Positions 1 through 15,407 of a DNA stretch of 24,963 nt are shown in pieces. Made by a program: the position numbers and the translations under genes. Numbering within the stretch: position 1 is the stretch's first letter; each line of letters begins with the position of its first letter. The notes beneath the pieces are model-generated. The model was not told where the DNA came from, made no database searches, and saw only the letters and a program-made list of their open reading frames with translations. Source of the DNA: an uncultured Clostridiaceae bacterium. GTDB lineage: Bacteria > Bacillota > Clostridia > Peptostreptococcales > Natronincolaceae. The stretch is taken from positions 1 to 24,963 of the forward strand of contig CBFGTV010000051.1 of NCBI GenBank assembly GCA_965652145.1. The letters are read 5' to 3'.

Positions 1-5
1 TTCGC

Positions 6-485: not shown

Positions 486-676
486 TATTGTAAAATAATT
501 TAGAAGCATTTGTTTTTAGTTAGTTAAATCCCTTATACACTGACTTGTTTCCCTCTATAAAAAGAACTATAAGTCAACATGCCAGGATCTGTAACTGTAA
601 GCGATCATTGCTATAATTTTAGTAGCTAGTTTTGTAAGCTCCTTCGGCAAATTATTTTATTACTGAGGTGTGTATA

Positions 677-1126
677 ATGCTTAATATAAAAAGAACCAAA
701 TTAATATTGGCTGTAATTCTCTGTTTACTAGTTACAATAATAAACAGTGCCGATTTTCACAATCCTTCAAGGGGCAATCGCAGGCCTGCAATTTCAGCAG
801 ATAGGGTTCATATTCATTATGGTATCGATAGTTCAGTAACCATTTTAACCAAGAAAGAAGATGTTTCTCAAATGGTGGATTTATATAACCGCATGGAAAT
901 AGGGCCCATTAGTAGACAGATGAATCCTTCAGACTTTTATACCGTCTATTATTTTCAAGATGAAAAAAATGTGGCCTTTTTAAATATTTACAACAAGGGC
1001 TTAACTAAAACCGGCTTTAAGGAATTATATGATGAATATGGTGATGTTAAAGCCTATGCCCTTGCACGTAAAATGTATTATCGTTTAAATGATGAAGAAT
1101 TACCCCGAGCCAGAATTAAAAGCTGA
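677..1126 (+). CDS. Hypothetical secreted protein (signal peptide)
   Basis: The track ORF starts at GTG 668. ATG 677 is preferred because GAGGTG at 665-670 gives a 6-nt spacer. The N-terminus KRTKLILAVILCLLVTIINSA has signal-peptide character. No motif is recognised. Confidence 0.4.
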   Translation: MLNIKRTKLILAVILCLLVTIINSADFHNPSRGNRRPAISADRVHIHYGIDSSVTILTKKEDVSQMVDLYNRMEIGPISRQMNPSDFYTVYYFQDEKNVAFLNIYNKGLTKTGFKELYDEYGDVKAYALARKMYYRLNDEELPRARIKS

Positions 1127-1418
1127 CAATTTGATTGATTGCTTTCATTTGTTATTTACTTTAATCTTTCTTGATTTTCTTTTGTAGTTAAAGTTAATGT
1201 TAGGGTGTTTTAATTAAGCCCATAATTAACAATAACTTTATGTGTAGTAACTTTAAAACATGAATTATAAATAGGCCATGATAGTACATTGGTTTTTAAA
1301 GCTTCTTAATTGAATCTCTATCATATAATTTACCATATTTACATTAACTTTACAAAACCCTTAATTAATGTTAAAGTTAAATTGTTAATACTACAATACC
1401 AAAGAAAGGTGCTTAATA

Positions 1419-1841
1419 ATGAAGAACAATATTAAACTAAAAGGATTATTAGTACTCCTTTTACTTACAATTCCTTTTACTTTTTTTAAAGGTGATGCGC
1501 CTGATTCTTCAAAGGATATAGATTTTGAGGTTTCAACGGTTGCTGTGAAGGCTGATACCATAAATAATTCAAGAAGATTATATTTTAACAGCAATGGTCA
1601 ATTAATCACTGACATAAGTGAGCTAAATAGAGCCCTTCAACAAAGCAGCACTAAGCATACAGAATTAACAGCACAGCTCCCTTTCGATGATCAGGCAGCC
1701 AAAGAGGAATTATCTGAGGAAGAACGGATGAAATTAGAGGCCCATATTGAAAAGCTATCTCTTGAAGCCGCAGAATTAGAAAGAAAACTAAAGGAATATG
1801 CAAATAATAATAAACCCTATAATGTTCCAGTAAATGAATAA
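1419..1841 (+). CDS. Hypothetical secreted or N-anchored protein with a C-terminal coiled coil
   Basis: RBS AAAGGTG precedes the ATG. The N-terminus is hydrophobic (LKGLLVLLLLTIPFTFF) and contains no Cys, so it is not a lipoprotein. The C-terminus (EELSEEERMKLEAHIEKLSLEAAELERKLKE) has a heptad, charged character. Confidence 0.45.
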   Translation: MKNNIKLKGLLVLLLLTIPFTFFKGDAPDSSKDIDFEVSTVAVKADTINNSRRLYFNSNGQLITDISELNRALQQSSTKHTELTAQLPFDDQAAKEELSEEERMKLEAHIEKLSLEAAELERKLKEYANNNKPYNVPVNE

Positions 1842-1852
1842 ATCATAAAACA

Positions 1853-1893
1853 AAAGCCCTTTCAAAACAATTGAAAAGGCTTTTTCTTTTTTT
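1853..1893. terminator. Bidirectional rho-independent terminator between the convergent genes ending at 1841 (plus) and 1892 (minus)
   Basis: Hairpin AGCCCTTTCAA / TTGAAAAGGCT (one mismatch) with loop AACAA, followed by TTTTTCTTTTTTT on the plus strand. Read on the minus strand the hairpin is followed by TTTTGTTTT. Confidence 0.6.
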
Positions 1894-3154
1894 AATATTT
1901 CTTCCCCAGCTCCCAGGCCTTGTCAAGCTCGAAAAGACATTGAATTAAATACAGAGCACCCTTAAAGCCCACAAAGGGGGTATAGGGGTAAATGGTATGC
2001 TTTAGCAGATTGGGATTGGCGATTTGCATCGTCAGCCTGCTTTGATGCTTAAATTCCAGTGAGGCCCCGTCGGCCATTAAAAGATACAGAGGGGTTTCCT
2101 TAAGATACTCCTCAATTTCGGCCTCACTCCACTGGCTTACCAAGAAGGGCTGCCATTTTTCAGGAACCTGGTCCTTAATTTCAGCAGATAGCTTGTGCTT
2201 TACAATAATCCTGTTAACCCGAAGCCCCAGCTCCTCCATAAAATCCGCCAGGCCAATTACTGTATCGTAATCCCCTACCAGAGCAACATCTTTAATGTCC
2301 TTTTCTCTAAGCATAAACTGGTAGCTCATCAGGTGCCTTTTAATTCTACTAATCCATTGGTTTAGGTAGCCTTCGTCCACCCGCTTTTTAAAGGCTCCTT
2401 CAATAGCCCTGATCCAAGAAACGGTACCGGCTAACCCATAGGGCCTGCCATGATGATAGGGAATGCCGTGGTTATCCTGCAATTCCTTGGCTGCCTTTAT
2501 TCCCTCTGCCCTCAGGACCAGATTAAATTCTGCCTGGCCGGCGGCTTCGATTTCACTAAGGGTAGTGTAGGCTGTAAAGAGGGTGCTGCAATGGGCCCCA
2601 AAGCCATCCTCCATGATGGCCTTAATTTCTTCTGCATCTGAGAGAAAGTTAAACTGATCCACATTAGTGCCAATCAAGCCATAATGATTTTTTCTTGTCG
2701 GTTGATTTTTAGGAACAAGCTGCTGACAAAGGAGCTTTAGGGTTTTTTCGATGCCCAGGGTATGGTCTCCGTGGTAGCCACCGGTGGTAATCGGAACTAA
2801 CCGTGCCTTTACCCTTGGCTGCATTTCATAGCATACGCTTTCAATGTCGGTACCAATCACTGCCGAGATGGAGGAGGCCATAATGAAAATATATTTAGGG
2901 TGATGATTTTCGTCAATTTCAATTATTGCCTTTTCAAGTCTTTCATGGGTGCCAAAGGAAATGTCGGTCTCGTCGATATGGGTTGTATAGACATTGGCCT
3001 TATGGCTGCCATTTAACTGCATCATTCCCTCCTGGGCAAAATGGGTGGTGCCTGCCGGGCCGAATTCAATAATGAAAATATCTGCTATGGTGCTGAGGGT
3101 CCATAGGGTACCCATTCGATCAGAGGGAATAGGAAAAAATTTATATAGCTCCAT
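1892..3154 (-). CDS. Nitrogenase-like component-1 beta-type subunit (NifK/NifN/BchB family; NflK-like)
   Basis: 420 aa with the overall look of the oxidoreductase/nitrogenase component-1 fold: GxGxxGG-like segments and conserved Cys in ESVCYEM and GAHCSTLF. It is translationally coupled, with its start overlapping the stop of the upstream NifD-like gene by 14 nt. It sits in an operon with NifH-like and NifD-like genes. Confidence 0.65.
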   Translation of the reverse strand: MELYKFFPIPSDRMGTLWTLSTIADIFIIEFGPAGTTHFAQEGMMQLNGSHKANVYTTHIDETDISFGTHERLEKAIIEIDENHHPKYIFIMASSISAVIGTDIESVCYEMQPRVKARLVPITTGGYHGDHTLGIEKTLKLLCQQLVPKNQPTRKNHYGLIGTNVDQFNFLSDAEEIKAIMEDGFGAHCSTLFTAYTTLSEIEAAGQAEFNLVLRAEGIKAAKELQDNHGIPYHHGRPYGLAGTVSWIRAIEGAFKKRVDEGYLNQWISRIKRHLMSYQFMLREKDIKDVALVGDYDTVIGLADFMEELGLRVNRIIVKHKLSAEIKDQVPEKWQPFLVSQWSEAEIEEYLKETPLYLLMADGASLEFKHQSRLTMQIANPNLLKHTIYPYTPFVGFKGALYLIQCLFELDKAWELGKKY

Positions 3155-4466
3155 GTCGCATACCTCCCTTTGAAGCCATGGCCATCATTTTTGCTTTCAT
3201 TTCCTCCTGTTGACCATAGCTTAACATAATCTTTTTAATAGCATAGAGGGGAATTTCAAAGCCCAGCTTTTTGGTTGCATCATCCAGCGTGATCTGTACG
3301 ATGTTTCGTTTTATTAAATTCATTGGGTTTTCATGACCGATATAAAAATCTGGCTTCAGCTGGTCATAGATTGACTGCATGGGGGCAATGTTGGCAATTC
3401 TGCTGATGTAGGGGTTTTGACCCTTTTCCTTGATTTCATCCATATAGATGCCGTCATTCTCATAAAGCTCCCTGACCTGTACTAAAAGGGGGGTCATGTC
3501 CAAATCACACAAAAAGCTGGCTACCTCCAGCGCCATCATGGGGGTGTTGCCATAGATAAAGGTTTTATCCTTTAACATGGCCCTGGCTTCCTCCATCAGG
3601 TTCCTTAATTGTGCCTCTTGCCCTTGGAGCTTATCCAGCAGCTTGATTTCAAGGGCTGATTCCAGCCTGGCATAACAGGCTTTTATCCGGTGGATGGAAA
3701 GATGCCTGTCGAAGTAAATATAATCTATATCAAAATCCCGCTTCATAGCTTTGGCCAAGGGCAGGGCAACAAAATCCGTTACAATATTCAGTTGAGCCCC
3801 TGGAACCTGACTAAGCTCAGCAATGGTACAGCTTGAAGGTACAACGGAATGAATGTCAACCCCTTCTTCCCTTAGCAGCTTAATTAGCTCGGTTTCTTCA
3901 ATGCCATGCTGACGATGGCCTAAAATATTGACGGTTTTAGGCCTTTTTTCCTGGGGCTCCATCAGAGTCACCAGCTTTTCGAGGCACCTTTCCATTCCGG
4001 GTATATGGCTGTTGCATTTAAAATGCTCGGTGGGTACCACCAATAGCTTTGCCGCCACCTCATGGGACATGGCCTGCCCCATGGCTTCAAAATCCTCACC
4101 AATCAGCTCCATCACACAGGTAGTTACAATCATAATTGCTTTGGGCTTGATTTTCTGATCAATTTCAATAATGATTTCCTTAATTTTTTCCTCACAGCCA
4201 AAGGTAATGTCATGCTTACTGGCTACAGCCGAATAAAAATTATCCCTTCCCTTTTGCCTTAGATGGGCAAAGTCCTTGGCATAATAGGTACACTCCTGGG
4301 TGCCCACCACCAAAACCACCAAATCCTCAATAAAGGAAGCAATCATGGCCACCCCAAAGAGGGGGCAATGGGTCCCTGGGAAAATGGCATGGGAAAGGGA
4401 TTGAATGTCTTCATTGGCCTGAATGTCTGCTAAACGTGCCAGGCCCGTCAAATCATATTTTTTCAT
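3141..4466 (-). CDS. Nitrogenase-like component-1 alpha-type subunit (NifD/NifE/BchN family; NflD-like)
   Basis: The track ORF extends to 4523. The start is preferred at M of MKKYDLTGLARL (4466), which is preceded by AGAGGTG and overlaps the ABC ATPase stop by only 14 nt. Cys residues sit in the HCPLFG, GTQECTYY, TFGCEE and TTCVMELIGEDF contexts typical of [4Fe-4S]-ligating NifD/BchN-like subunits. Confidence 0.7.
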   Translation of the reverse strand: MKKYDLTGLARLADIQANEDIQSLSHAIFPGTHCPLFGVAMIASFIEDLVVLVVGTQECTYYAKDFAHLRQKGRDNFYSAVASKHDITFGCEEKIKEIIIEIDQKIKPKAIMIVTTCVMELIGEDFEAMGQAMSHEVAAKLLVVPTEHFKCNSHIPGMERCLEKLVTLMEPQEKRPKTVNILGHRQHGIEETELIKLLREEGVDIHSVVPSSCTIAELSQVPGAQLNIVTDFVALPLAKAMKRDFDIDYIYFDRHLSIHRIKACYARLESALEIKLLDKLQGQEAQLRNLMEEARAMLKDKTFIYGNTPMMALEVASFLCDLDMTPLLVQVRELYENDGIYMDEIKEKGQNPYISRIANIAPMQSIYDQLKPDFYIGHENPMNLIKRNIVQITLDDATKKLGFEIPLYAIKKIMLSYGQQEEMKAKMMAMASKGGMRHGAI

Positions 4467-5268
4467 GTTCGCACCTCTCTTCACAGCCTTTACAAACGCC
4501 AATGGGGTGGATAATAAATTCATCCTTTAATAAATCCCTACGGATACACACCTCAACGTTGTAGACCGATTCAATTAAATCCTCAGTTAATACTTCAACG
4601 GGGCTTCCCTCTGCGATGAGGGCCCCCTCCTTCATGACTACCACCCTGTGGCTGTACTTGGCAGCCTGGCTTAGGTCATGGAGTACCATAATCACCGTCA
4701 GCTTCAGCTCCTTGTTCAGATTCCGCAGAAGCTCCATCACCTCCAGCTGATGACAAATATCCAGGTAGGTGGTGGGCTCATCCAATAACAAAACCTGGGG
4801 CCTTTGAGCCAGGGCCATGGCGATCCATACCCGCTGCCTTTCTCCTCCTGAAAGGGACATTACTCGCTTATCCTCAAAGCCCTGTAGGGAGGTATGGTTG
4901 ATGGCCCAGCGGATAATTTCCTCATCTTCGTGATTTTTAGGTTGAAACCACCTTTTATGGGGCATTCTCCCGTAATAGATCAATTCCTTTACGGTAATAT
5001 CCTCAGGGCTTTTATTGTGCTGAGATAGGGTAGATATTTTACGGGCAATGCTTTTGACATTCATACTACCCATATCTTCCTTATCAAGATACACAAAGCC
5101 GGATTTTTGCTTTAAAAATCGTGAAACTGTTTTCAACAGGGTTGACTTTCCCGAGCCATTGGGGCCGATGATGGAAACCATTTGCCCCGGCTCAACCTTA
5201 AAGGAGAAATCCTGTACAATTACCTTTTCTGAATAGGCAATACACAAATTTTTAGCTTCTATCATCAA
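4453..5268 (-). CDS. ABC transporter ATP-binding protein, FecE/FepC/BtuD class (type II importer)
   Basis: Walker A GPNGSGKST, signature LSGGERQR, Walker B LLLDEPTTYLD and an H-loop (VLHD). The start overlaps the permease stop (ATGA). The C-terminal tail CKGCEERCEH is unusual. Confidence 0.85.
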   Translation of the reverse strand: MMIEAKNLCIAYSEKVIVQDFSFKVEPGQMVSIIGPNGSGKSTLLKTVSRFLKQKSGFVYLDKEDMGSMNVKSIARKISTLSQHNKSPEDITVKELIYYGRMPHKRWFQPKNHEDEEIIRWAINHTSLQGFEDKRVMSLSGGERQRVWIAMALAQRPQVLLLDEPTTYLDICHQLEVMELLRNLNKELKLTVIMVLHDLSQAAKYSHRVVVMKEGALIAEGSPVEVLTEDLIESVYNVEVCIRRDLLKDEFIIHPIGVCKGCEERCEHEKI

Positions 5269-6254
5269 GCATGCCCCCTTCTTAAAAGATACAGGAAAAA
5301 GGGCCCCCCAATGACCGCCATAATCACCCCAACCGGAAGCTCAATGGGATTCATAACGGTTCTGGCAAAGGTGTCCCCCAATAGCAGCAGGCTGCTGCCC
5401 AATATCACGCTAAAGGGAAGCAGGTGCTTGTAATCTGACCCAATTAACAGCCTGGCAATATGGGGAACAATTAAACCAACAAAGCCGATTACCCCCACCA
5501 GGGCGGTTGAAATGGCTGCAATAAATACAGCAACCAGAGAAATCAGCACCCTGTACCGGTTAATGTCTACCCCAAGGTTGCTGGACATTTCGTCTCCCAG
5601 CTGCAAAATATTGGCCTTTCTAATACATAGCATGGCCAATGTTAGCCCAATGAGGCTATAAATGGCCAAAACCCGTACATCATACCAGGTTTTTCCCGTT
5701 ACGCTGCCATTGACCCACAGTAAAACACCTTGAATTTTATCACTATGCAAAATGGATAACAGGGAGGTTCCTCCCCCTAAAATGGCATTGACCGCCACCC
5801 CCGCCAGGATAATCCTTACGGGCTTGATGCCGTCCTTCCAGGCCAGGCTATAGACCAGCCCACAGGCTATGGCCCCACCTATGAAGGACACTAGGGGAAC
5901 CAGGTAGCTGTATTGGGGTAAAAGCAGCATGATAATAATGGCCATCAGGCTTGCCCCGGAAGAAACCCCGGTTAAACCGGGGTCAGCCAAAGGGTTCTGC
6001 ATAACAGCCTGAAGCAAGGCCCCTGCCACAGCCAAATTGGCACCCACCATCATGGCAATAAAAATTCTGGGCAGCCTGATATTCATGATGATATTTCTGT
6101 CAGCAGACATTTCACTGCTGAAAATAGCACTAAATATACGGTCATAGCTGTATTCTACACTGCCCATTCTGATTGAAAAGAAGGCAATCAGTATAAGCAG
6201 CAGAAAAGAAACGGCAATGGTAAGGGGCTTTTTCCCCTTCTTCAGCTCTATCAT
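5265..6254 (-). CDS. ABC transporter permease, FecCD/BtuC family
   Basis: 329-aa polytopic protein. It carries the FecCD signature region GVIGFVGLIVPHIARLLIG...LGDTFART and a G-rich transmembrane helix (GGPFFLYLL). Confidence 0.85.
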   Translation of the reverse strand: MIELKKGKKPLTIAVSFLLLILIAFFSIRMGSVEYSYDRIFSAIFSSEMSADRNIIMNIRLPRIFIAMMVGANLAVAGALLQAVMQNPLADPGLTGVSSGASLMAIIIMLLLPQYSYLVPLVSFIGGAIACGLVYSLAWKDGIKPVRIILAGVAVNAILGGGTSLLSILHSDKIQGVLLWVNGSVTGKTWYDVRVLAIYSLIGLTLAMLCIRKANILQLGDEMSSNLGVDINRYRVLISLVAVFIAAISTALVGVIGFVGLIVPHIARLLIGSDYKHLLPFSVILGSSLLLLGDTFARTVMNPIELPVGVIMAVIGGPFFLYLLRRGHA

Positions 6255-6266
6255 TTCTTTAGTCTC

Positions 6267-7169
6267 CTACTGATATAGTATTTCTGCCATTTTTTCCAGG
6301 GCCTCAATAGCTCTGATATTGGCCGTTACCCCAAAGTATTCCGGATCTAAATCGTAAACACGATGATTTTTAACCGCCTCCAGGTTCACCCAGAAGCCCT
6401 TTTCAAATTCCTTTTCAAAGGCAGCCTTGCTGACCTCGGGGGAAGCATGGGTTAACCTTAATATCATATCGGGGTTTAGGTCTGCAATGGTTTCAAGGCT
6501 AAAGGGCAGATAGGGCATGGGTCTATTTTCTCCTAATGAATCGGTTACATTGATGCCGCCCAGCATTTCTACCAGCCCCCCCGCATAGGAGTGCTTTGTC
6601 GCCAGCATAAAGCTTTCAGGGGTACCAAAGATCACCAGTACCCTTGGGGCCTCTTTCCCCTCAATTGAATTTAATACCTGCTGCTCCCTTTCCTTCATTT
6701 CATCCAATACTGCCTTAGCCTTTTCTTCCTTACCAAAATACTGACCTAGGCTTTCAATATTTTCTAAAATGTTCTGATAGGAGTTGTTGGAAAGAAACAT
6801 GGTTTCGATATTCTGTCCTTCAAAAAGGGCTTCGATGCTTTCCTTCAGACTTGCATCGGTAATATACAGCTCCGGGTTTAGGGAAACCACCTTTTCTAAA
6901 TCAGGGTTCATGGGCATACCAATTTCTGTGATACCATTAAATCTTTCGGGCAATGCCTTTTCGGTTGACACTACCCCCACCACATCCACATCAATCAAAT
7001 CTAAAATCTCTGCCGCTGCAACGGTGCCTGCAATAACCCTTAATTCCTGTTGCTGGGCCTCCGCCTGGGGCCCTTGGGGTACTGCTGTTCCTGGCTCGGT
7101 GTTGGTGGTTTTGCCACAGCCTGTCATCAGTACCGCTGCCAGCAAGCCCATTAGTATAATTTTTTTCAT
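6267..7169 (-). CDS. Substrate-binding lipoprotein, cluster A/class III (FecB/BtuF/HmuT-like) of the ABC importer
   Basis: Signal peptide with lipobox (LMTGC), followed by a T/P/Q-rich linker. The size (300 aa) fits, and it sits next to the FecCD/FecE components. Its start overlaps the NifH-like gene's stop (ATGA). Confidence 0.7.
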
Positions 7170-7921
7170 TCCTCTGATCCCTCCATTATTTTTTTAGCCA
7201 GCTGGAAATAGATTTGGCTCATTTCGCTGTCAGGGAAGGCTTCTATCACTGTTTTACCTGCATTTTCTGCCTCCTGCACCAGGCTGTTTCTAGGGATATA
7301 ATGATAGATGCTGGTGTCAATTTCCTGACATAGCTTTTCTACCAGCTCCTGTTCGTTCTCAACATTTTTTGCATTCAAAATTAATCCCTCAAGCCGTGCG
7401 TAACCCCGGGCCTTAAACTGCCTGACTGCGTTGGAAATATTGGATGCTGCATACATCGACATCATTTCACCCGAGGTAACAATATAGACTTCCTTGGCAT
7501 ACTGGTTCCTAATGGGCATGGCAAAGCCGCCGCAAACCACGTCTCCTAAAACATCATAAACGACAATGTCTGGTTGGTAGGTTTCAAAGGCATTCAGTTC
7601 CTCCAGCTTTTCAAAGGCGGTAATAATCCCCCGGCCTGCACAGCCAATCCCGGGGGTAGGGCCTCCGGCCTCTACACACAATACACCATTGTAGCCTGCA
7701 AATACCATATCCTTTAGATCAACATCATCATTTTTTTCCTTTAAAACATCTAATACAGTGGGAATAAAGGCACCCCGCATCAAATTCTTCGTTGAATCAG
7801 CCTTGGGGTCGCAGCCTATTTGCATCACCCTGTAGCCTAAATGACTTAGGGCGGCCGACAGATTTGAAACGGTGGTGGATTTTCCTATTCCCCCTTTACC
7901 GTATATGGCTATTTTCTTCAT
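7166..7921 (-). CDS. NifH/BchL-family nitrogenase-iron-protein-like ATPase (NflH-like)
   Basis: Walker A KGGIGKST, switch I CDPKADST, and the two [4Fe-4S]-ligand contexts [17 protein letters not shown] and [14 protein letters not shown] that are diagnostic of NifH/BchL/ChlL. 251 aa. Confidence 0.88.
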
Positions 7922-8442
7922 GACTGCTTCACCTCAGAAAGCTGGCTTAATATTTCCCTGATGAAATTTCTGGCTGCCTCAAAATCTTCTTCATTGGGAT
8001 GCTTTGCTGCCTCCTGATGCCTTTTTAATCTTTCCTCCGTCATTTGGTGGGGCCCGCTGGCACCGGCTTTTTTAAACATTTCTGTTATTTTAGGATTAAT
8101 TTTTCCCTGGCAGAGAAAATTTCCCAACAGGATATTATCCTTCTCAAGGATTTCAGTAACATTTTTCAGGGTGGCCTGGGCATGCTCTGAATCCGGGTAG
8201 GCACCCAGAGTGCCAAAGGTGGCTACATGTTTATTTTTTAATCCTTCCATAAAGGCCAGCATTTCTTTATTAGGCTTGGCCCGGTCTACCCAGTAGCCCA
8301 AAACTAAAAAATCTGCATCTATTTCTTGACTTACTTCCTTCAAATCATATATTTTAGTTGTATCGGGCATGGCCTTTAATATTTCGTAGGCAATCTTTTT
8401 CGTATTGCCCGTGGCAGAAGAAAACACTATGGCTTTTTTCAT
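7918..8442 (-). CDS. Flavodoxin (probable electron donor to the NifH-like protein)
   Basis: [20 protein letters not shown] is the flavodoxin FMN phosphate-binding loop (T/SxTGNT). The stop overlaps the NifH-like start. The start is preferred at ATG 8442 (GGAG with a 9-nt spacer) rather than the track's 8451. Confidence 0.75.
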
Positions 8443-8626
8443 TTGAAACATCTCCTTAAATGATAATTTCTATCAAATACTTCACCCATACATCTTATCC
8501 TATTCATTCTACAAACTTTTTTAATATATTTCGATTTTTTATAATTTATTTTTCAGTTTCTTTTTTTTAGAAAATAGCGTATGATATTATTAGATAAGAA
8601 TAATTATCATTATTGGAGTGTTGATC

Positions 8627-9370
8627 ATGATTACGGATATTTGTTTCCCCAAGCCAAATATCAATGAGATTTATGAGCATTATGAGCTTGAACTCTCCTT
8701 GATTGATAAGGTCGTAAACGGTGAGGTAAAGGAGGCCCTGGGGCTATTTGATGAGTTATTTGATAACAGGCATTTATATGCACTGGATGAAAGGTGTGCT
8801 TTTCGTTCTCAAAAAAACCATTTGATTTCACTGTCGGCTCTACTATGTCATAATGTTATTAAGAAGGGTGTACCGCCCTACACTGCAAAGGCAAAAAACC
8901 AATCCTTTGTTAAGCTCATAGAAAATGCTGGTACCATGGCGACCCTTATGAATTTAGGTAGAATATTAATAAGGGGCTATTGTACACAGGTGACCTCAAG
9001 ATTAACCCGGGCCAGCGATGCCCACATCATTAAAGCCATCAATTATATACATAATAATCTGGGGGAAGACCTGACCCTTGAACGGGTTGCAGAACATGTC
9101 AACCTGAGTCGCTGCTATTTTTGTACGCAATTTAAAAAGGAAACCCGGCTTTCCTTTTCAAATTATTTGGCCCACGCCCGAATTGAAAAAAGTAAGTTTT
9201 TACTTACTCATTCTGATAAATCTATATTAGACATTGCTATTTTACTGGGCTTTAACAGTCAAAACTATTTTACAACCCAGTTTAAGAAGTTTACCGGTAT
9301 GACTCCGAAAAAGTTTAGAATAGCGGGTTCGGCACAAAAAAAAGACCAGGCCCCGGGGCAATTACCCTAG
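8627..9370 (+). CDS. AraC/XylS-family transcriptional regulator, divergent from the nitrogenase-like operon
   Basis: The C-terminus has two HTH_AraC motifs (RVAEHVNLSRCYFCTQFKKETRLSFSNYLAHARIEKSKFLL...ILDIAILLGFNSQNYFTTQFKKFTGMTPKKFR). The start is preferred at ATG 8627 after GGAG; the track begins at GTG 8618. Confidence 0.8.
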   Translation: MITDICFPKPNINEIYEHYELELSLIDKVVNGEVKEALGLFDELFDNRHLYALDERCAFRSQKNHLISLSALLCHNVIKKGVPPYTAKAKNQSFVKLIENAGTMATLMNLGRILIRGYCTQVTSRLTRASDAHIIKAINYIHNNLGEDLTLERVAEHVNLSRCYFCTQFKKETRLSFSNYLAHARIEKSKFLLTHSDKSILDIAILLGFNSQNYFTTQFKKFTGMTPKKFRIAGSAQKKDQAPGQLP

Positions 9371-9403: not shown

Positions 9404-9874
9404 TTAGCTTAAATAGGCTCTAAACATCCAAAGTGTCTTTTCAAGATTTTCCAAAGCACCTACAAATAGGTCAACAGACACTTGATCGTTGTGTTCATCG
9501 GCTACATTTAAAGCGCCTCTTAATTCACCAATTAATTGTTGGAAATCCTCTTTCAGGGCACTTATAACCGCCTCCCCTGCGATGGCTTCACTTTGAGCTT
9601 CTTTAAGGGTGGCCAATTCTAAATAGTCCTTCATGGTTGCCGCTGGTCTAAAGCCAAGGGTTAAGATTCTTTCTGCAACAGCATCTAATTCCTCGGCTGT
9701 ATGATCATACAGCTCCTCTAGCTTTGAATGTAGTTGGAAGAAACTCTTGCCCTCTACATTCCAATGGTAATTGTGCAGCTTGGTGTATAGTACATGCAGG
9801 TTAGCTAAATACTGATTTAATACCTTTGATACTTCTTCTCTTCCCTTTGCCTCTAATCCAATTTGTACGTTCAT
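9404..9874 (-). CDS. dps: Dps (DNA-binding ferritin-like protein)
   Basis: Ferritin-like Dps signature LHVLYTKLHNYHWNVEGKSFFQLHSKLEELYDH...DEHND. 156 aa. RBS GGAGGAATTACA precedes the ATG. Confidence 0.85.
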   Translation of the reverse strand: MNVQIGLEAKGREEVSKVLNQYLANLHVLYTKLHNYHWNVEGKSFFQLHSKLEELYDHTAEELDAVAERILTLGFRPAATMKDYLELATLKEAQSEAIAGEAVISALKEDFQQLIGELRGALNVADEHNDQVSVDLFVGALENLEKTLWMFRAYLS

Positions 9875-9889
9875 AATTGTAATTCCTCC

Positions 9890-10321
9890 TTAATTTTTTT
9901 GATTTTTATTTGACAGGCATTCATGACAAATGCCTTTATAATAAACACTTTTTTCACTGATTTTAAAATCCCTTAAAGCTTCAATCTCCTCTGAAATCAT
10001 TGAGACCTTAAAGTCATAGATTTTTCCACACTCATTGCACTTAAAATGCCCGTGGCTGCCAATATCGGCATCATACCTGGCCTCATTTTCTTCAATGGTT
10101 ATGACTCTTGCAACATTGGCCTCAATAAAAAGCTTCAGGGTGTTATATACTGTGGTTTTTGATAGAGTTGGAATTTCCTTCACCAAGGCCCGGTATATTT
10201 CCTCTGCCGTTGGGTGGGAATCCTTTTCAACCAAGTATTCCAGTATTTTAATTCGAGCATAGGATGGCTTGATATGATTCTTTTGTAAATATTCACTTAT
10301 ATTTTCGATTGAAACCCTCAT
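9890..10321 (-). CDS. perR: Fur-family metalloregulator, probably PerR (co-oriented with dps)
   Basis: Winged-helix N-terminal region (KPSYARIKILEYLVEKDSHPTAEEIYRAL...TVYNTLKLF), HxH metal site (SHGHFKC) and two CxxC pairs (CNECG...CHEC). 143 aa. Confidence 0.75.
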   Translation of the reverse strand: MRVSIENISEYLQKNHIKPSYARIKILEYLVEKDSHPTAEEIYRALVKEIPTLSKTTVYNTLKLFIEANVARVITIEENEARYDADIGSHGHFKCNECGKIYDFKVSMISEEIEALRDFKISEKSVYYKGICHECLSNKNQKN

Positions 10322-10346
10322 GCCATCAGCTCCTATGACAATAATT

Positions 10347-10399
10347 TTTGTAATTGATTCAAATTTGTAATTGATTTAAATTTGCAATCATTACAATTT
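10347..10399. promoter_or_regulatory. Three tandem 17-bp operator-like repeats upstream of the perR-like gene (candidate Fur/PerR boxes)
   Basis: TTTGTAATTGATTCAAA (10347-10363), TTTGTAATTGATTTAAA (10364-10380) and TTTGCAATCATTACAAT (10381-10397). The third unit is the inverted version of the first two, so the array contains TTGTAATNATT / AATNATTACAA dyads typical of Fur-family boxes. Confidence 0.55.
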
Positions 10400-10502
10400 A
10401 TATCTGTTTTATATATACCTTTGCATTTGAACCTTAAACATATTATTTGAAATTTTTTTGTTTTTATTTGATTTATTTAAATTAATGAGATTTCTTAACT
10501 AT

Positions 10503-10548
10503 AAAAAAGCCCCTCTCTTTTAGTATCAGACTTTAAAAGAGAGGAGCA
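10503..10548 (-). terminator. Rho-independent terminator of the CAT-family gene
   Basis: On the minus strand: GCTCCTCTCTTTTAAAGTCTGATACTAAAAGAGAGGGGC followed by TTTTTT. The stem is CCTCTCTTTT / AAAAGAGAGG. Confidence 0.7.
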
Positions 10549-10555
10549 ATATCTA

Positions 10556-11194
10556 TTAGTATAAATACTTTTCTGGTTCATTTAACAAACACTGTAATGT
10601 TTCAAAATACTGTCCTACATGGGCACCATCTGCCAGAGCATGATGGGCCTGAAGGGAAAAGGGAAGCTTGATTATTCCGTTTTCTTCAAAATATTTTCCC
10701 CAGGTAATTCGAGGTACGCTATCGGTTGGCTTCATATGAATGGGGTGAGTAACACTGGTAAAGGACACCCATGGCAAGCTGGTGATATAAAGTACATCAT
10801 CTTCCAAGGGTCGGTCTTCAATATTAATACATCCCTTCGCTGCTTCTATGGCATTTGCAGTATTTTCTTTAAATACCGCAAATGCCTCAGTATATCTTGA
10901 GGAACAAAAGCTAAAGACACCATGGTCAGTCATCATAGTAAAGGCCGGATGAACCCGTTCATGCTCAATTACCGTTTTTTCTTTAATTCTATAGCGCAGC
11001 ACCTCTACAGAATTGGCGGCCTTTGTGGCAACATAGAGCAATGAGATGAAAAAAGGCCTTTTTTCGGTTTTTATATATTGAAGAAACCTGCTTATGTCTA
11101 CATTGGTACAAACATTGAAATGCGGGTAATCTAGCTGGCTGAAATATTCAAAATGCTGCTTTCTGTTCCACTTGTTTATATCGATAATTCTCAT
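10556..11194 (-). CDS. Chloramphenicol-acetyltransferase-family protein (type A CAT-like)
   Basis: 212 aa. KWNRKQHFEYF matches the CAT N-terminus (SWNRKEYFDHY in CatP-like proteins). The catalytic-histidine motif AHHALADGAH matches HHAVCDGFH, and the length is right. It is monocistronic with its own terminator. Confidence 0.75.
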   Translation of the reverse strand: MRIIDINKWNRKQHFEYFSQLDYPHFNVCTNVDISRFLQYIKTEKRPFFISLLYVATKAANSVEVLRYRIKEKTVIEHERVHPAFTMMTDHGVFSFCSSRYTEAFAVFKENTANAIEAAKGCINIEDRPLEDDVLYITSLPWVSFTSVTHPIHMKPTDSVPRITWGKYFEENGIIKLPFSLQAHHALADGAHVGQYFETLQCLLNEPEKYLY

Positions 11195-11402
11195 TGGTAT
11201 CCCCCTGATGATCTAGATTTTTACAATTCCTATTATATCAGAAGGGGAAAGGGAAACTCAATTCTATCAAGTATTTATTTCATTATCTCTTATACAGAGA
11301 ATTGCCTTGTTCTTTAATGGTTTTCCTTATAAACCATTGAAGTTTAACTTTATTGGTTAGATCCCCGAAGCTTATTTTGTTATTTATCAACTGCCATGCC
11401 CA

Positions 11403-12548
11403 CTACCATTCTGCAATGGTACCATCATAGTTCTTCCATTTGGGGTTGGTCCACACCAGGCCCTCTAACGCTATCTTTTCTACAAATTCTTCATCGATGT
11501 CAATACCCAGGCCTGGCTTTGTAGGAATCTTGACATAACCATCCTTGTATTGAAAAATCTCTTTATTCTTGATGAAGTCTAAAAGATCAAAGCCCTTGTT
11601 GTAGTGTATGCCCAGGCTTTGCTCCTGAATAAATACATTGGGAGTACATACATCCATCTGCAGGGTTGCTGCCAAGGCAATAGGTCCGTAGGGAGCATGG
11701 GGGGCTACTGCCACATCGAAGGCCTCAGCCATGGCGGCTATTTTTCGCCCTTCTAATATTCCTCCTGTCAAGGCCAGATCAGGCTGAATGATATCGATTA
11801 CGCCATCCTTTAAAATATTTTTAAATTCCCATCGAGTATAGAGCCTTTCTCCTGTTGCTAGAGGAGTGGATGTATACTTGGCCACCTCCCGGAAGGCTTC
11901 TTCATTTTCTGGTAGCACCACCTCTTCCAGGAACATTAGCTTATAGGGCTCCAGCTCCTTGGCCAATACCTTGGCCATGGCCTTATGTACCCTTCCATGG
12001 AAATCTACCCCTATATTTAAATCATAGCCTACAGCCTCTCTAATAGATGCTACTCGCTCAACAACGGCCTGTATTTTTTTAAAGGAATCGATATAATGCA
12101 GCTCCTCTGTGGCATTCATTTTAATTGCCTGAAAGCCCCTGTTTTTTCTGTCTAAGGCCTCCTTTACCACCTCAGCGGGTCGGTCTCCGCCAATCCATGA
12201 ATAGACCATGATTCGATCCCGGGCAGCCCCTCCTAAAAATTCGTAAACAGGTATATTGTAGAATTTCCCCTTAATATCCCATAGGGCCATTTCAATTCCT
12301 GAAAGGACTGTCATGTGAATGGGGCCGCCCCTAAAGAAGGAACGATACAGCTCCTGCCATAAGCGCTCTATCTCAAAGGGATTTCTTCCAATCAAGGTAT
12401 TGCCCATTTCGTAGGCCCCGGCCACAACGGTTTCTGTCTTGGTTCCTGAGATCATCTCGCCCCATCCGTCTATACCTTCATCTGTACTAATTTTAATAAA
12501 AATCCACCTAGGCTTGATTTTATATACCTTTATTCCTGTAATCTTCAT
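11403..12548 (-). CDS. Enolase-superfamily acid-sugar dehydratase, D-galactonate dehydratase (DgoD)-like
   Basis: The N-terminus MKITGIKVYKIKPRWIFIKISTDEGIDGWGE closely matches DgoD. Metal and catalytic motifs are present: GVDFHGR, FLEEVV, ATGERL, IIQPD, PHAPYGPIALAA. 381 aa. Confidence 0.85.
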   Translation of the reverse strand: MKITGIKVYKIKPRWIFIKISTDEGIDGWGEMISGTKTETVVAGAYEMGNTLIGRNPFEIERLWQELYRSFFRGGPIHMTVLSGIEMALWDIKGKFYNIPVYEFLGGAARDRIMVYSWIGGDRPAEVVKEALDRKNRGFQAIKMNATEELHYIDSFKKIQAVVERVASIREAVGYDLNIGVDFHGRVHKAMAKVLAKELEPYKLMFLEEVVLPENEEAFREVAKYTSTPLATGERLYTRWEFKNILKDGVIDIIQPDLALTGGILEGRKIAAMAEAFDVAVAPHAPYGPIALAATLQMDVCTPNVFIQEQSLGIHYNKGFDLLDFIKNKEIFQYKDGYVKIPTKPGLGIDIDEEFVEKIALEGLVWTNPKWKNYDGTIAEW

Positions 12549-12561
12549 TTCTATCGTCCCC

Positions 12562-13917
12562 CTATTCTGCTGAAATTACTGCTGCCTGCTTTTTCTTCCT
12601 CTTGCCCTCGATATATACCCATACCCCTATAAAGGCAAGGAAAAAGACCGGTACGGTGATAATTAAATTACCTGTAAATACTTTATACACGATGAAGCTT
12701 AAGGTTAAGCTGGTGGCTGCAAAGGATGAAATCATTGCTCCTGCTGCCATAGATAAATCAATTCCCGATGCCTTGGCCAAATCAGTCAATACCGGTGCTG
12801 TATTGGTTCCTGCCAAAAGAATAGCACCTGTACAAACCAAGCCAATTATAATATTTTTTAGAAGGTTTCCTTGGGTTAGAGCCACCACCATAGCCACCCG
12901 GAAGGGCACCACCGCCAGGTCAGCAAAGGGGAGCACGCGATTTCCCGGAAGAATAACAGCCAACGCTATGGTGAGGGGAATCACAATCAGGGATGTGGTA
13001 ATCACATCGGGGTTCCCCACCACAACGGCTGCATCTAAACCGATCAGAAACTTTCTTCCCTTAAACTTATCCTTGGTAAATTTCTTTGCAGCTTCTGATA
13101 TAGGCATCAAGCCCTCCATAAAAAGGGAGGTCATTTTGGGGATTAGTACCATTACCGCCGCCATATTAACTGCCACATTCAAAATCTTAGTAATATCATA
13201 TTTTGCCAGGGCTCCTATAACACCGCCCAGCAGCATTCCTGTAATCATGGGTTCACCAAAGAAGCCCAGATATTTTTTGGCATCCTTCACTGTAAAATTC
13301 ACTTTATTTATTCCAGGTATTTTATCCAGCAGCATATTCAAAGGTGCTGCAATGACCATAGAAGAAAGGGCAGAGACCGTTGGAAGGGAGACCCCGGGAA
13401 GTCCGAAGAAATCGCTGACAAGGTCCTCTGTCCAGTCTGACATTTTAAAGGTGACAATGGCCATGGTCAGGGTGGCTGCGATGCCTAGGGGAACACTTTT
13501 AGTGACATAATAAGTCATGATTCCTACAATGGCCATATGGTGATAATTCCAAATATCTACATCAAGGGTATTGGTTTTCTTTAATATCAGCATGACGATG
13601 TTTGTAGCCAGAATACCAAAGATTAAAATTGGAATAATGGGTGACGACCAGGTTACTGCCGCAATGGCCCCCCATCCCACATCTAAAATATCCAGCTTAA
13701 TACCGAAATTCTCTACCATTCCCTGGGCAGCAGGGCCGAGGTTTGAGGAGAGTAGGTTAATAACCAACCGAATTCCGGCAAAGCCAATCCCCACTGTCAT
13801 ACCAGATCGAAAGGCTCTTGCAGGCTTTACTCTAAAAATAAGTCCGATGGCAAAGATAATGATTGGAAGCATAACCGTTGGTCCGGCATTGAGTAAAATG
13901 TTAAACGCATTATACAT
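12562..13917 (-). CDS. PTS EIIC component, galactitol (Gat) family
   Basis: 451 aa and polytopic. The N-terminus LNAGPTVMLPIIIFAIGLIFRVKPARAFRSGMTVGIGFAGIRLV...GPAAQGMVENFGIKLDILDVGW parallels GatC. FLIGLD...GNRVLPFADLA is also GatC-like. Confidence 0.85.
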   Translation of the reverse strand: MYNAFNILLNAGPTVMLPIIIFAIGLIFRVKPARAFRSGMTVGIGFAGIRLVINLLSSNLGPAAQGMVENFGIKLDILDVGWGAIAAVTWSSPIIPILIFGILATNIVMLILKKTNTLDVDIWNYHHMAIVGIMTYYVTKSVPLGIAATLTMAIVTFKMSDWTEDLVSDFFGLPGVSLPTVSALSSMVIAAPLNMLLDKIPGINKVNFTVKDAKKYLGFFGEPMITGMLLGGVIGALAKYDITKILNVAVNMAAVMVLIPKMTSLFMEGLMPISEAAKKFTKDKFKGRKFLIGLDAAVVVGNPDVITTSLIVIPLTIALAVILPGNRVLPFADLAVVPFRVAMVVALTQGNLLKNIIIGLVCTGAILLAGTNTAPVLTDLAKASGIDLSMAAGAMISSFAATSLTLSFIVYKVFTGNLIITVPVFFLAFIGVWVYIEGKRKKKQAAVISAE

Positions 13918-13950
13918 TTATAACCCTCCCATAATAAATTAATTGTTCAT

Positions 13951-14232
13951 TTATTTTAAATGTCCTATAATTTCTTCCAAAACAGACTCTTCCTCAAAGC
14001 CCGTTAAAAGGGCAATGGCGCCTACCACCGGGATACTAACCTCAGAACCTTCAAATTTCCCAGTGGTAACAAGCAGATCAAAATCTGCCACCTTAGAGGG
14101 AACTTCCATCAGCTTACATTGAGTAACCGACACATTGATACCGTTATCTTCACAGGCTTCTTTTATTTTACTGGCCACTACTGTTGAGGTTGCAATACCA
14201 TTTCCACACGCAACTAGTACTCTTTTCATCAT
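13951..14232 (-). CDS. PTS EIIB component, galactitol family
   Basis: 93 aa. The active-site Cys loop VACGNGIATS is typical of GatB-type EIIB. Confidence 0.8.
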   Translation of the reverse strand: MMKRVLVACGNGIATSTVVASKIKEACEDNGINVSVTQCKLMEVPSKVADFDLLVTTGKFEGSEVSIPVVGAIALLTGFEEESVLEEIIGHLK

Positions 14233-14263
14233 TTACGCCTCCTAGAATTTAGTTTCCGCTACG

Positions 14264-14731
14264 TTATAGCAAATAAGGTTTTAGCTTTTCCATTACTTCT
14301 TCGCTGCTTGCTGCTTTACAAATCCCTTTTAAAACTTCTTGATCCTTAACAAGGTTAATAATTTTTTGTAGCATATTTAAATGCCCATGGGGCTGATCCA
14401 GGGCCAGCATCATAATAATATGGACTTCCAGCTCCCGTTCTGGATCATCCATTGAACGAAAAATGACCGGCTCCTTAAGAATGCCTATGGCAATGGCTGC
14501 CCTGTTAACCAGCTTATAATCACAGTGGGGTATGGCAATTTTGATATCTACCGACGGAAGCCCGGTGGGATAGTTCATTTCCCTTTCTACAATAGCTTCT
14601 TGATAAGACTCCTTTACATACCCCCCTTGATAAAGCTTGTCAGATAAAAATCTTAAGGCTTCAAGATTTTCACTAAAGGTTAAGTCTCTAAAAATTAAAT
14701 CCTTTTCAAAATACAATTCTGTGCCCATCAT
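14264..14731 (-). CDS. PTS EIIA component (EIIA-2, Mtl/Fru/Gat type)
   Basis: 155 aa. The phosphorylatable-His context KIAIPHCDYK and the LEVHIIMMLALD region are typical of EIIA-2. Confidence 0.75.
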   Translation of the reverse strand: MMGTELYFEKDLIFRDLTFSENLEALRFLSDKLYQGGYVKESYQEAIVEREMNYPTGLPSVDIKIAIPHCDYKLVNRAAIAIGILKEPVIFRSMDDPERELEVHIIMMLALDQPHGHLNMLQKIINLVKDQEVLKGICKAASSEEVMEKLKPYLL

Positions 14732-14740
14732 TTTTGCCTC

Positions 14741-15358
14741 CTAGCCTATTTCTGCTTCAAATGCTTTGAGAGACCCCCTTAACCCCTTCAGGTTCCCATT
14801 GATTATGTCCTCTCTATTGAAGATTCCCGAACCAATTCCCAGGTAATCTGCCCCAAGATTTAAAAATTCTTTTGCATTGTTCTTTGTGATTCCTCCCACA
14901 GCCATGAGGGGAATGTTACCAAGGGGTGCCTTCACATCCTTAAAAAACCTAGCACCGCAGCTAATCGCCGGAAATACCTTTACAATGTCTGCCCCTGCCT
15001 CCAAGCCTTGGTATATTTCTGTGGGAGTCATGGCCCCTGATACAGAAATTACTGAATTGGCCTTGCACAGATTTATTACCGCCTTGGGCAGCACAATGGG
15101 AGATAAAATAAATCTAGCTCCTGCCTGAATAGCCGCCTCTGCCTGCTGCAGGGTATTGACTGTGCCTGCCCCAATTAAGATTTGGTCTTTAAATTCTCTT
15201 TGAAAGGTTTCAATCATTTCCAGGGCCCCGGGGGTATTCATGGTGATTTCTACTGCTTTAATGGTACTTTCTGTCAAAATCTCTATTACATTTCTAATCT
15301 GCCTTTTTTCGTATCCACGCAAAATAATAGTGATCTTAGGAAAGGCTGCTGCATTCAT
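14741..15358 (-). CDS. 2-keto-3-deoxy-6-phosphogluconate / 6-phosphogalactonate aldolase family (Eda/DgoA-like)
   Basis: 205 aa. The Schiff-base lysine context GADIVKVFPA is present, together with ITMNTPGALE and the G-rich C-terminus GGITKNNAKEFLNLGADYLGIGSGIF typical of KDPG/KHG aldolases. Confidence 0.85.
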   Translation of the reverse strand: MNAAAFPKITIILRGYEKRQIRNVIEILTESTIKAVEITMNTPGALEMIETFQREFKDQILIGAGTVNTLQQAEAAIQAGARFILSPIVLPKAVINLCKANSVISVSGAMTPTEIYQGLEAGADIVKVFPAISCGARFFKDVKAPLGNIPLMAVGGITKNNAKEFLNLGADYLGIGSGIFNREDIINGNLKGLRGSLKAFEAEIG

Positions 15359-15392
15359 CTACTCACCTCCTTAATCTCACTATTATCCTTGA

Positions 15393-15407
15393 GCAAATAT
15401 TGTGCCA
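15393..15407 (-). promoter_or_regulatory. Sigma-54 (-24/-12) promoter for the aldolase-PTS-dehydratase operon
   Basis: The minus strand reads TGGCACAATATTTGC, i.e. TGGCAC-N5-TTGC(T). That is a perfect match to the RpoN consensus. It lies 35 nt upstream of the aldolase ATG, with GGAGGTGAG as RBS, and sits directly after a sigma-54 activator gene. Confidence 0.65.

Follow-up and report, generated by a model that had tools for sequence, protein, structure and literature searches.

A kinase-free operon that pairs a galactitol-family phosphotransferase system with a DgoD-clade dehydratase: a predicted route for D-galactonate catabolism

The DNA analyzed here is a stretch of 24,963 nucleotides (nt) from an uncultured Clostridiaceae bacterium (GenBank assembly GCA_965652145.1, contig CBFGTV010000051.1), referred to below as the window; contigs identical to it carry the NCBI assignment Alkaliphilus crotonatoxidans. 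Our subject is a group of five genes on its minus strand, at positions 11403-15358, which combines a phosphotransferase system (PTS) with a sugar-acid dehydratase and an aldolase and is read below as a predicted catabolic module for D-galactonate. The five open reading frames (ORFs) were verified at the coordinates listed. Read 5′ to 3′, they encode the aldolase, the PTS components EIIA, EIIB and EIIC, and the dehydratase. They are separated by successive gaps of 9, 31, 33 and 13 nt and therefore form a single tight operon. An activator gene and a promoter element precede them.

15410-18358, minus strand: LevR-type sigma-54 enhancer-binding activator of about 980 amino acids (aa) (PF00158, 2.9e-39; PF00874; PF03610; PF00359)
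15392-15407, minus strand: sigma-54 -24/-12 promoter TGGCACAATATTTGCT, an exact TGGCAC-N5-TTGCT
14741-15358, minus strand: class I aldolase of the 2-keto-3-deoxy-6-phosphogluconate/-galactonate (KDPG/KDPGal) family, predicted 2-dehydro-3-deoxy-6-phosphogalactonate aldolase (PF01081, E=6.6e-31)
14264-14731, minus strand: PTS EIIA (EIIA_2; Mtl/Fru/Gat type) (PF00359, 4.5e-34)
13951-14232, minus strand: PTS EIIB (Gat/Lac type) (PF02302)
12562-13917, minus strand: PTS EIIC of the galactitol family (Gat, TC 4.A.5), predicted D-galactonate permease (PF03611 EIIC-GAT, E=3.7e-83)
11403-12548, minus strand: DgoD-clade dehydratase of the enolase superfamily, predicted 6-phospho-D-galactonate dehydratase (MR_MLE_N and MR_MLE_C; NF010624)

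A first-pass annotation of this DNA, made from its letters alone, had named an aldolase, EIIA, EIIB, an EIIC of the galactitol family and a dehydratase with all the catalytic motifs of DgoD, and had noted the lack of a kinase and of a dehydrogenase. The gene content was borne out by Pfam and NCBIfam matches. So was the second point as far as the window extends: no sugar or sugar-acid kinase and no polyol or sugar dehydrogenase was detected among the 26 of its ORFs that were run against Pfam. When the window was searched by tblastn with a PfkB-type kinase for 2-keto-3-deoxygluconate or -galactonate (KDG or KDGal), taken from the comparison locus L059, and with E. coli DgoK, a single chance-level match was obtained at E≤1 (E=0.67). 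Homologues of GatD and GatYZ were also not found in the window.

The sequence of the dehydratase places it in the DgoD family, with a score of 619.6 bits against NF010624, the NCBIfam galactonate dehydratase equivalog (cut-off 311), and of 248-262 bits against the ManD and gluconate dehydratase models. The N-terminal capping domain (PF02746, 1.8e-18) and the C-terminal barrel (PF13378, 4.1e-68) were both recognized; the protein is 52% identical to E. coli DgoD and its best match in PDB is 3RR1. All seven catalytic residues are in place, in agreement with the first reading of the motifs: D183, H185, E209, E235, D258, H285 and E310 of E. coli DgoD correspond to D182, H184, E208, E234, D257, H284 and E309 of the window protein. 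In E. coli numbering these are the metal ligands D183, E209 and E235, the acid/base H185, the D258-H285 dyad and E310. The seven catalytic and metal-binding residues were invariant across 82 aligned sequences.

For comparison one genome per species was scanned, and 80 loci were returned. Forty-three species-representative genomes, from Bacillota, Fusobacteriota and Actinomycetota, have the order aldolase-EIIA-EIIB-EIIC-dehydratase; a five-gene order repeated in 43 other species is therefore not a product of chance. The carriers include Clostridium, Caproicibacter, Fusibacter, Negativicutes, Carnobacteriaceae, Enterococcus, Streptococcus, Aerococcus, Loigolactobacillus, Erysipelotrichaceae, Leptotrichia and Coriobacteriia, and the dehydratases of this group are 73-93% identical. 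A rearranged but still PTS-linked version of the module is present in Pelosinus (L055). A Gat-family PTS accompanied all 45 assessable clade dehydratases from other genomes; L023, also a member of the clade, lies on a 3-kb contig that ends before any PTS could show and stands outside this count. PTS linkage was seen in none of the 35 more distant DgoD relatives (61-67% identity; Bacillus, Paenibacillus, Cohnella, Virgibacillus and others), which are accompanied by ABC or other transporters. In a neighbour-joining tree the PTS-linked dehydratases were monophyletic, forming a group of 46 tips with no non-PTS member within it. Neither an MFS or ABC transporter nor a PfkB- or DgoK-type kinase was found with the operon of the window or within any of the 43 modules. 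Two of the loci, L021 (labelled as a Proteiniphilum metagenome-assembled genome) and L022 (Streptococcus sp. 'caviae'), have equal percent identities to the window proteins and the same layout; the Bacteroidota label of the L021 bin is probably a binning error.

The two groups of loci also differ in their kinases. A PfkB- or DgoK-type kinase gene was present within 10 kb in 16 of the 35 non-PTS loci, for example as dgoD-kinase-aldolase in L059, and in one of the 45 PTS-linked loci. In that single case (L033) the PfkB-like gene lies 9 kb away and its product is 23% identical to the reference kinase. The association between kinase and PTS linkage gave a Fisher p of about 2e-6, a statistic that ignores shared ancestry. 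By genome neighbourhood, the PTS-linked clade is cleanly separated from the more distant DgoD relatives. Two protein clusters (12 and 13) encoded beside Paenibacillus dgoD were considered as kinases and rejected: they are a two-component sensor and an AraC-type response regulator.

The module was also found on plasmids. A PTS-type dehydratase (75-79% identity) was present in 19 plasmid records, from E. faecium, E. faecalis, E. durans, Lactococcus lactis and Latilactobacillus curvatus. The conjugative E. faecium plasmids that carry the module are about 210-250 kb in size and come from human, animal and environmental isolates; on one of these, of 244 kb, its genes have no more than the generic labels 'PTS sugar transporter subunit', 'PTS transporter subunit IIC' and 'galactonate dehydratase'. 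Transposase genes flank the module on both sides in an L. curvatus plasmid. In a complete E. faecium plasmid of 13.7 kb it lies between IS6-family elements, and tblastn found no kinase anywhere on this plasmid. In tblastn searches with the L059 kinase and E. coli DgoK, none of the PTS modules, in the 80 loci or on the plasmids, proved to be linked to a kinase. The module moves between plasmids as a unit, without a kinase.

Alignment of the dehydratases identified a set of replacements confined to the PTS-linked clade. A position was counted as clade-specific if it was at least 90% conserved in that clade and at most 10% shared with other DgoD relatives, and 31 positions were of this kind. The 20s loop changes from GEPvvEG[RK]a.TV to GEmISGT[KR]TeTV, with loss of the invariant Glu35 and gain of an invariant SGT[KR]T (S34-G35-T36-K37-T38 in the window protein). 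The 50s loop changes from YRggFYRGG to hr-SFFRGG with a deletion of one residue. In addition, Q88 is replaced by M (M87 in the window), the two residues SH after the catalytic Asp (S260-H261) by AL (A259-L260), the C.L past the catalytic His (C286/L288) by A.Y (A285/Y287), and the C-terminal segment GH.WKNP.WR by GL.WTNP.WKNY. These replacements in the specificity loops are invariant or nearly so in the clade. The 20s loop, the 50s loop and all positions within three residues of a catalytic residue had been set beforehand as test regions from general knowledge of the superfamily; they make up 23% of the protein and contain 18 of the 31 clade-specific positions (binomial p=2e-5). A lost acidic residue together with a loop rich in hydroxyl groups and lysine would fit an added phosphate on the substrate. 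Since neither the canonical DgoD specificity loops nor the expected operon context was found, the label 'D-galactonate dehydratase' is probably a mis-annotation for the PTS-linked clade.

The PTS components have the residues needed for phosphoryl transfer. EIIA contains the phospho-histidine motif IAIPH (His69) and EIIB the phospho-cysteine motif VLVACGNG (Cys9), and each of these residues is kept in at least 95% of 43 aligned sequences, which comprise the window copy and modules from other genomes. Because both are conserved, the transporter should phosphorylate its cargo. Scores against the galactitol-specific models were under the cut-off in all three cases: 420 bits for EIIC with TIGR00827 (cut-off 542), 65.7 bits for EIIB with the NCBIfam galactitol IIB model (cut-off 95) and 74.7 for EIIA with the IIA model (cut-off 139). 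Identity to E. coli GatABC is about 37-39% for EIIC (gatC), 34% for EIIB and 22% for EIIA. Judged by these comparisons, EIIABC are members of the Gat family (TC 4.A.5) but not orthologues of GatABC.

The activator gene upstream encodes, in addition to a helix-turn-helix (HTH) domain, an AAA+ Sigma54_activat domain, a PRD, an EIIA-Man domain and a C-terminal EIIA_2 domain. A single PRD was recognized, and the C-terminus has the EIIA_2 domain where B. subtilis LevR has a second PRD. The best NCBIfam match was to the LevR-like DagR model, below its cut-off. The longest ORF starts with TTG at 18358, and gene callers on the identical contigs report 971 aa, implying a start near 18325. The element TGGCACAATATTTGCT is the sole zero-mismatch match to TGGCAC-N5-TTGCW in the 25-kb window. 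It begins 2 nt past the levR stop codon and is followed by a GGAGG ribosome-binding site and the ATG of the aldolase gene. LevR orthologues were found upstream of the module in 15 loci, and a -24/-12 element was located 46-115 nt upstream of the aldolase gene in 14 of these 15, compared with none of 12 loci without LevR. The activator domains and the exact -24/-12 promoter uphold the LevR-type sigma-54 control that had been proposed for the operon at first pass. In Lactobacillales the place of LevR is taken by an activator of about 690 aa with Mga-HTH, PRD and EIIA domains. Both regulator types are PTS-controlled, as is typical of uptake-coupled induction. The C-terminal EIIA_2 domain of the LevR-type activator (residues 842-975) belongs to the same family as the operon EIIA and is 27-30% identical to it.

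These observations bear on two explanations in which the dehydratase and the PTS do not share a cargo. In one of them the enzyme is a D-galactonate dehydratase of the usual kind, with the free acid as its substrate, a KDG/KDGal kinase is supplied in trans, and the PTS serves an unrelated polyol or sugar, or sensing for the PRD regulator, so that the linkage is regulatory or historical. It agrees with the score of the dehydratase in the DgoD equivalog model and with the presence of all its catalytic residues. Many non-PTS DgoD loci, those of the Paenibacillus group, have no neighbouring kinase, and trans-acting kinases therefore do occur; KdgK-type kinases are common in Bacillota. We nevertheless regard this explanation as rather improbable. 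None of the 43 modules includes a transporter for free galactonate or an enzyme for polyol phosphates or sugar phosphates, and if no enzyme followed to use the phosphorylated PTS cargo, its uptake would be wasteful or toxic. Both the linkage and the gene order are constant across three phyla and two regulator types. Furthermore, the limits of the dehydratase clade coincide exactly with those of PTS linkage, the clade has a specificity-loop signature of its own, and plasmid segments flanked by insertion sequences carry the module without a kinase.

According to the other explanation the enzymes detoxify or salvage internal 6-phospho-hexonates, for example those arising by oxidation of galactose-6-phosphate, and the PTS again serves another cargo. 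Genes for histidine phosphatases or HAD phosphatases are often found 3′ of the module, a hint of sugar-phosphate stress management. However, LevR/PRD control together with a dedicated EIIABC is a hallmark of uptake-coupled, substrate-induced catabolism, and no oxidoreductase that could form the phospho-acid is linked to the module. We consider such a role very improbable.

The configuration of the sugar acid is indicated by the aldolase. Its Schiff-base Lys and catalytic Glu align with K126 and E37 of DgoA and with K133 and E45 of Eda. It has Val in the column of DgoA V154 and Eda T161, and its strand beta1 reads IILRG, which is DgoA-like (I12, no Pro). The V154/T161 and beta1 sites are experimentally established stereo-determinants (PMC4915726). 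Val was found at the first of these sites in all 45 PTS-linked aldolases, and the aldolases encoded beside non-PTS dehydratases were mixed (12 Thr, 11 Val). The NCBIfam scores of the aldolase were 140.3 for PRK09140 (cut-off 207), 139.3 for TIGR01182 (cut-off 156) and 147.2 for PRK06552 (cut-off 238). The residues at the determinant sites point to the galacto (KDPGal) series over the gluco series.

A second type of module was recognized by its EIIC. In six loci (L014, L026, L030, L046, L049 and L050) EIIC is divergent, with 40-42% identity to that of the window. A hydrolase gene of the phosphotriesterase (PTE) family was present in all six of these loci, designated type B, and in none of the 37 loci of the main type, type A, to which the window belongs. 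The gene is apparently frameshifted in L049, and it was also found on plasmid NZ_CP044267.1 (L091, 9782-10684). The best PDB matches of the hydrolase are 3PNZ, which we take to be Lmo2620, and 3MSR/3OVG; its score against the NCBIfam 'phospho-furanose lactonase' model was 138 (equivalog cut-off 630). According to PMC10971088, which refers to Korczynska et al. 2014, the PTE family includes hydrolases of phosphorylated sugar-acid lactones. This suggests that type B imports a lactone and type A the open acid. The lactonases Lmo2620 and Mycoplasma MS53_0025 are the best structural and NCBIfam relatives of the type B protein and likewise adjoin a PTS; no phospho-sugar lactonase gene of this kind is present in the type A module of the window.

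Both the aldolase and the type B loci have to be considered in relation to a third explanation, which keeps the sequence of PTS, phospho-acid dehydratase and aldolase but changes the cargo. This could be D-gluconate, D-talonate, D-altronate, D-mannonate, a 2-keto-hexonate or mainly a 1,4-lactone, the product then being KDPG or another 2-keto-3-deoxy-phospho-acid. The EIIC is orthologous to no characterized permease, the remodelling of the dehydratase pocket could be due to another stereochemistry as well as to a phosphate, and the aldolase is under the cut-off of both the Eda and the DgoA NCBIfam models. The lactonase-like gene of the type B loci can be counted on the same side, as can the D-2-hydroxyacid dehydrogenase or UxaA-like dehydratase found in the related loci L047, L055 and L016/L018. 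On the other hand, DgoD is defined by a catalytic His/Asp-His arrangement, which the enzyme retains in full, and the protein is far closer to the DgoD model than to those for ManD and gluconate dehydratase (619 against 248-262 bits). In every module the aldolase has KDPGal-type residues at the two known stereo-determinants, and the PTS family handles galactitol, which has the galacto configuration. We therefore judge another cargo to be unlikely.

Our preferred reading is that the operon is a self-contained, substrate-inducible module for D-galactonate catabolism, in which a PTS replaces the transporter and the kinase of the DeLey-Doudoroff (dgo) pathway, and from the comparisons above we consider it reasonably probable. 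D-galactonate lactone is possibly a further import form. D-galactonate and galactitol have the same C2-C6 configuration, and the primary hydroxyl phosphorylated by the Gat PTS is the same in both. In the proposed pathway a phosphoryl group would be relayed from HPr~P to EIIA (His69) and EIIB (Cys9), and the Gat-family EIIC would bring in D-galactonate and release it as 6-phospho-D-galactonate. The DgoD-clade dehydratase, with unchanged catalytic machinery and a pocket remodelled in the 20s and 50s loops, would convert the 6-phospho acid to KDPGal (2-dehydro-3-deoxy-6-phospho-D-galactonate), which the aldolase would cleave to pyruvate and glyceraldehyde-3-phosphate. The LevR-type activator would drive the sigma-54 promoter, its PRD and EIIA domains presumably being phosphorylated by the PTS when the substrate is absent. 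The identity of the substrate, its phosphorylation at O6, the action of the dehydratase on the phospho-acid and the regulatory phosphorylation are what we infer. That the PTS stands in for transporter and kinase, leaving the dehydratase to work on a phosphorylated substrate, had been suggested in the first-pass annotation. The suggestion is now backed comparatively by the PTS linkage (45/45 against 0/35), the loop signature and the phosphoryl-carrying residues.

Several points weigh against this reading. Neither common descent nor horizontal transfer of the complete module is taken into account in the association statistics. Around half of the DgoD loci without a PTS likewise have no adjacent kinase, so that the absence of a neighbouring kinase proves little by itself. 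The clade-specific replacements in the dehydratase are mostly hydrophobic (L, M, A, F, Y); besides K12, R134 and the loss of E35, they do not include the gain of Arg or Lys that might be expected of a phosphate site. The enzyme may also be active on free galactonate, given its 52% identity to E. coli DgoD and a score well over the cut-off of the DgoD equivalog model. The AlphaFold2 model of the dehydratase, calculated with a 24-sequence alignment, was poor (mean predicted local distance difference test score 58).

A more extensive version of the D-galactonate reading takes the PTS-linked DgoD clade to be a true 6-phospho-D-galactonate dehydratase with the SGT[KR]T 20s loop as its phosphate site. 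The resulting kinase-free 'phosphorylative DeLey-Doudoroff' pathway would be spreading on enterococcal plasmids, with type B importing the lactone and using a dedicated phospho-lactonase. We give this version an even chance.

The proposed pathway can be compared with several known systems. With E. coli dgoRKADT the module shares a DgoD-type dehydratase (52% identity, same catalytic residues) and a KDPGal aldolase with the same stereo-determinants, and the end products would also be the same, pyruvate and glyceraldehyde-3-phosphate. However, E. coli has the MFS symporter DgoT, the kinase DgoK and the GntR-type regulator DgoR where the window has a Gat-family PTS and LevR with sigma-54, and the specificity loops of the two dehydratases differ. 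The order of reactions would differ as well: dehydration, phosphorylation and cleavage in E. coli, and phosphorylation, dehydration and cleavage in the module. E. coli GatABC belong to the same EIIC, EIIB and EIIA families and act on a galacto-configured cargo that is phosphorylated at a primary hydroxyl, but the gat system includes the dehydrogenase GatD and the tagatose-bisphosphate aldolase GatYZ, both of which the window lacks.

Dehydration of a 6-phospho-hexonate followed by aldolase cleavage is known from the Edd and Eda steps of the Entner-Doudoroff pathway and from the PTS-dependent gluconate route of enterococci. The same two steps would operate in the module; the enzymes are different, since Edd is an iron-sulfur protein of the IlvD/Edd family acting on the gluco isomer and the module dehydratase belongs to the Mg-dependent enolase superfamily (DgoD clade). 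Closer in organization is the D-glucosaminate system of Salmonella, dgaABCDEF/DgaR, in which a 6-phospho acid delivered by a PTS is converted directly to a 2-keto-3-deoxy-6-phospho acid and cleaved by a KDPG-family aldolase (PMC4987338, PMC9529869). D-glucosaminate had been cited at first pass as a known form of a PTS-dependent sugar-acid route ending in a KDPG-type aldolase, in agreement with PMC4987338. Like the module, the dga system combines a PTS-phosphorylated sugar acid and a KDPG-family aldolase with a LevR-like regulator, DgaR, and sigma-54. Unlike the module, it uses a mannose-family PTS and the pyridoxal-phosphate-dependent ammonia-lyase DgaE, and its product is KDPG. The module is an analogue of the Dga-type pathway and not a member of it.

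We know of no earlier acid-sugar dehydratase of the mandelate racemase branch that is specific for a phosphorylated sugar acid. In open-access full texts, with subscription journals outside the scope of the search, we found no description of a galactonate PTS, of 6-phosphogalactonate or of its dehydratase, in line with the first-pass remark that no activity on phosphorylated substrates is characterized in the DgoD subgroup. The open-access full texts also contained no description of phospho-lactonases in the context of a galactonate PTS, of enolase-superfamily enzymes associated with a PTS or of the NCBIfam name DagR, and Francke et al. 2011 on sigma-54 do not mention the module. Two genome surveys merely list module genes. 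One of them (PMC6042284) names dgoD, PTS-Gat-EIIA/B/C and eda in a set enriched in blood isolates of E. faecalis, where they are treated as genes for galactitol.

If the D-galactonate reading is true, dehydration of 6-phospho-D-galactonate would be a new reaction for a heavily studied enzyme superfamily, and an aldonic acid would be a new class of cargo for the Gat PTS family. The reading would also put right a systematic annotation in thousands of entries, named 'galactonate dehydratase' or 'PTS galactitol transporter', and would explain a possible use of galactonate by many Gram-positive bacteria of the gut, the mouth and food. Galactonate has already been linked to gut colonization in E. 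coli (PMC12288454).

Variant neighbourhoods were observed around some members of the dehydratase clade. In several of them the dehydratase gene lies beside a gene for a UxaA-like (SAF and GD_AH) dehydratase and/or a D-2-hydroxyacid dehydrogenase (L055, 5212-11812; L023, 10-2860; L047, 11400-12470; L016/L018, 2810-3757). Such neighbours hint that other sugar acids or 2-keto acids reach the dehydratase by related routes. In enterococci and their relatives the module is followed on its 3′ side by a gene for a conserved membrane protein of about 160 aa with no family match and then by a histidine-phosphatase gene; Clostridium relatives have a Cof-type HAD phosphatase gene instead. Examples of these post-module genes occur in L019-L045 (e.g. 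L019, 11162-12195), L008 (11335-12159) and L090 (9170-10194). They may guard against sugar-phosphate stress.

The region 3′ of dgoD in the window contains the following elements.

11312-11342, strand not given: AT-rich hairpin 3′ of dgoD, a weak terminator candidate (consensus match only)
11261-11232: sigma-70-like promoter of the CAT-like acetyltransferase gene (consensus match only)
10556-11194: CAT-like acetyltransferase, the next gene downstream of dgoD

In the scan for terminators and promoters, match counts were no better than in shuffled sequence. The CAT-like acetyltransferase gene was considered as a sixth gene of the operon and rejected: it has a sigma-70-like promoter of its own and is not conserved beside the module elsewhere. 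Between this gene and fur, the strains represented by L001, L003, L005 and L006 have an ABC-ATPase/FtsX-permease gene pair (L001, 12025-14890), and the window (interval 10322-10555), L002 and L004 are without this insertion. On the other side of the operon, the window and several strains have an intact copy of the SPFH/Band-7 gene that adjoins levR (window 18589-19758, minus strand); this gene is broken into two ORFs in otherwise identical contigs (L001, 2867-3960; L006, 2866-3960), which suggests pseudogenization at the strain level.

The remaining parts of the window contain two further groups of genes. A run of seven genes at 1892-8451 (minus strand) encodes a flavodoxin (BilS-like, below cut-off), a NifH/CfbC-like ATPase, a FecCD permease, an ABC ATPase, two NifD/K-like proteins and an IsdE-type haem-binding substrate-binding protein of an ABC transporter (TIGR03659, 303 bits, just above cut-off). 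An AraC regulator gene diverges from this run, and Fur and ferritin-like genes adjoin it; the group as a whole also takes in 8618-9370 (plus strand) and 9404-10321 (minus strand). The combination of a nitrogenase-like reductase with a haem-uptake transporter suggests anaerobic processing of tetrapyrroles or haem. Farther along, an RtcB RNA ligase gene (20150-21382, minus strand) is divergent from two tandem WYL-domain genes (21515-23714, plus strand; 411 and 323 aa; weak WYL matches). The two may form a WYL-type regulator pair that controls RNA repair instead of the sigma-54 activator RtcR. The flanks of the window (1-2000 and 21000-24963) have a GC content of 27-38%, compared with 41-47% in the operon region. 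They contain small ORFs with no family match, and the ORF at 1419-1841 has weak matches to defence-system models (PbeC, Drt5).

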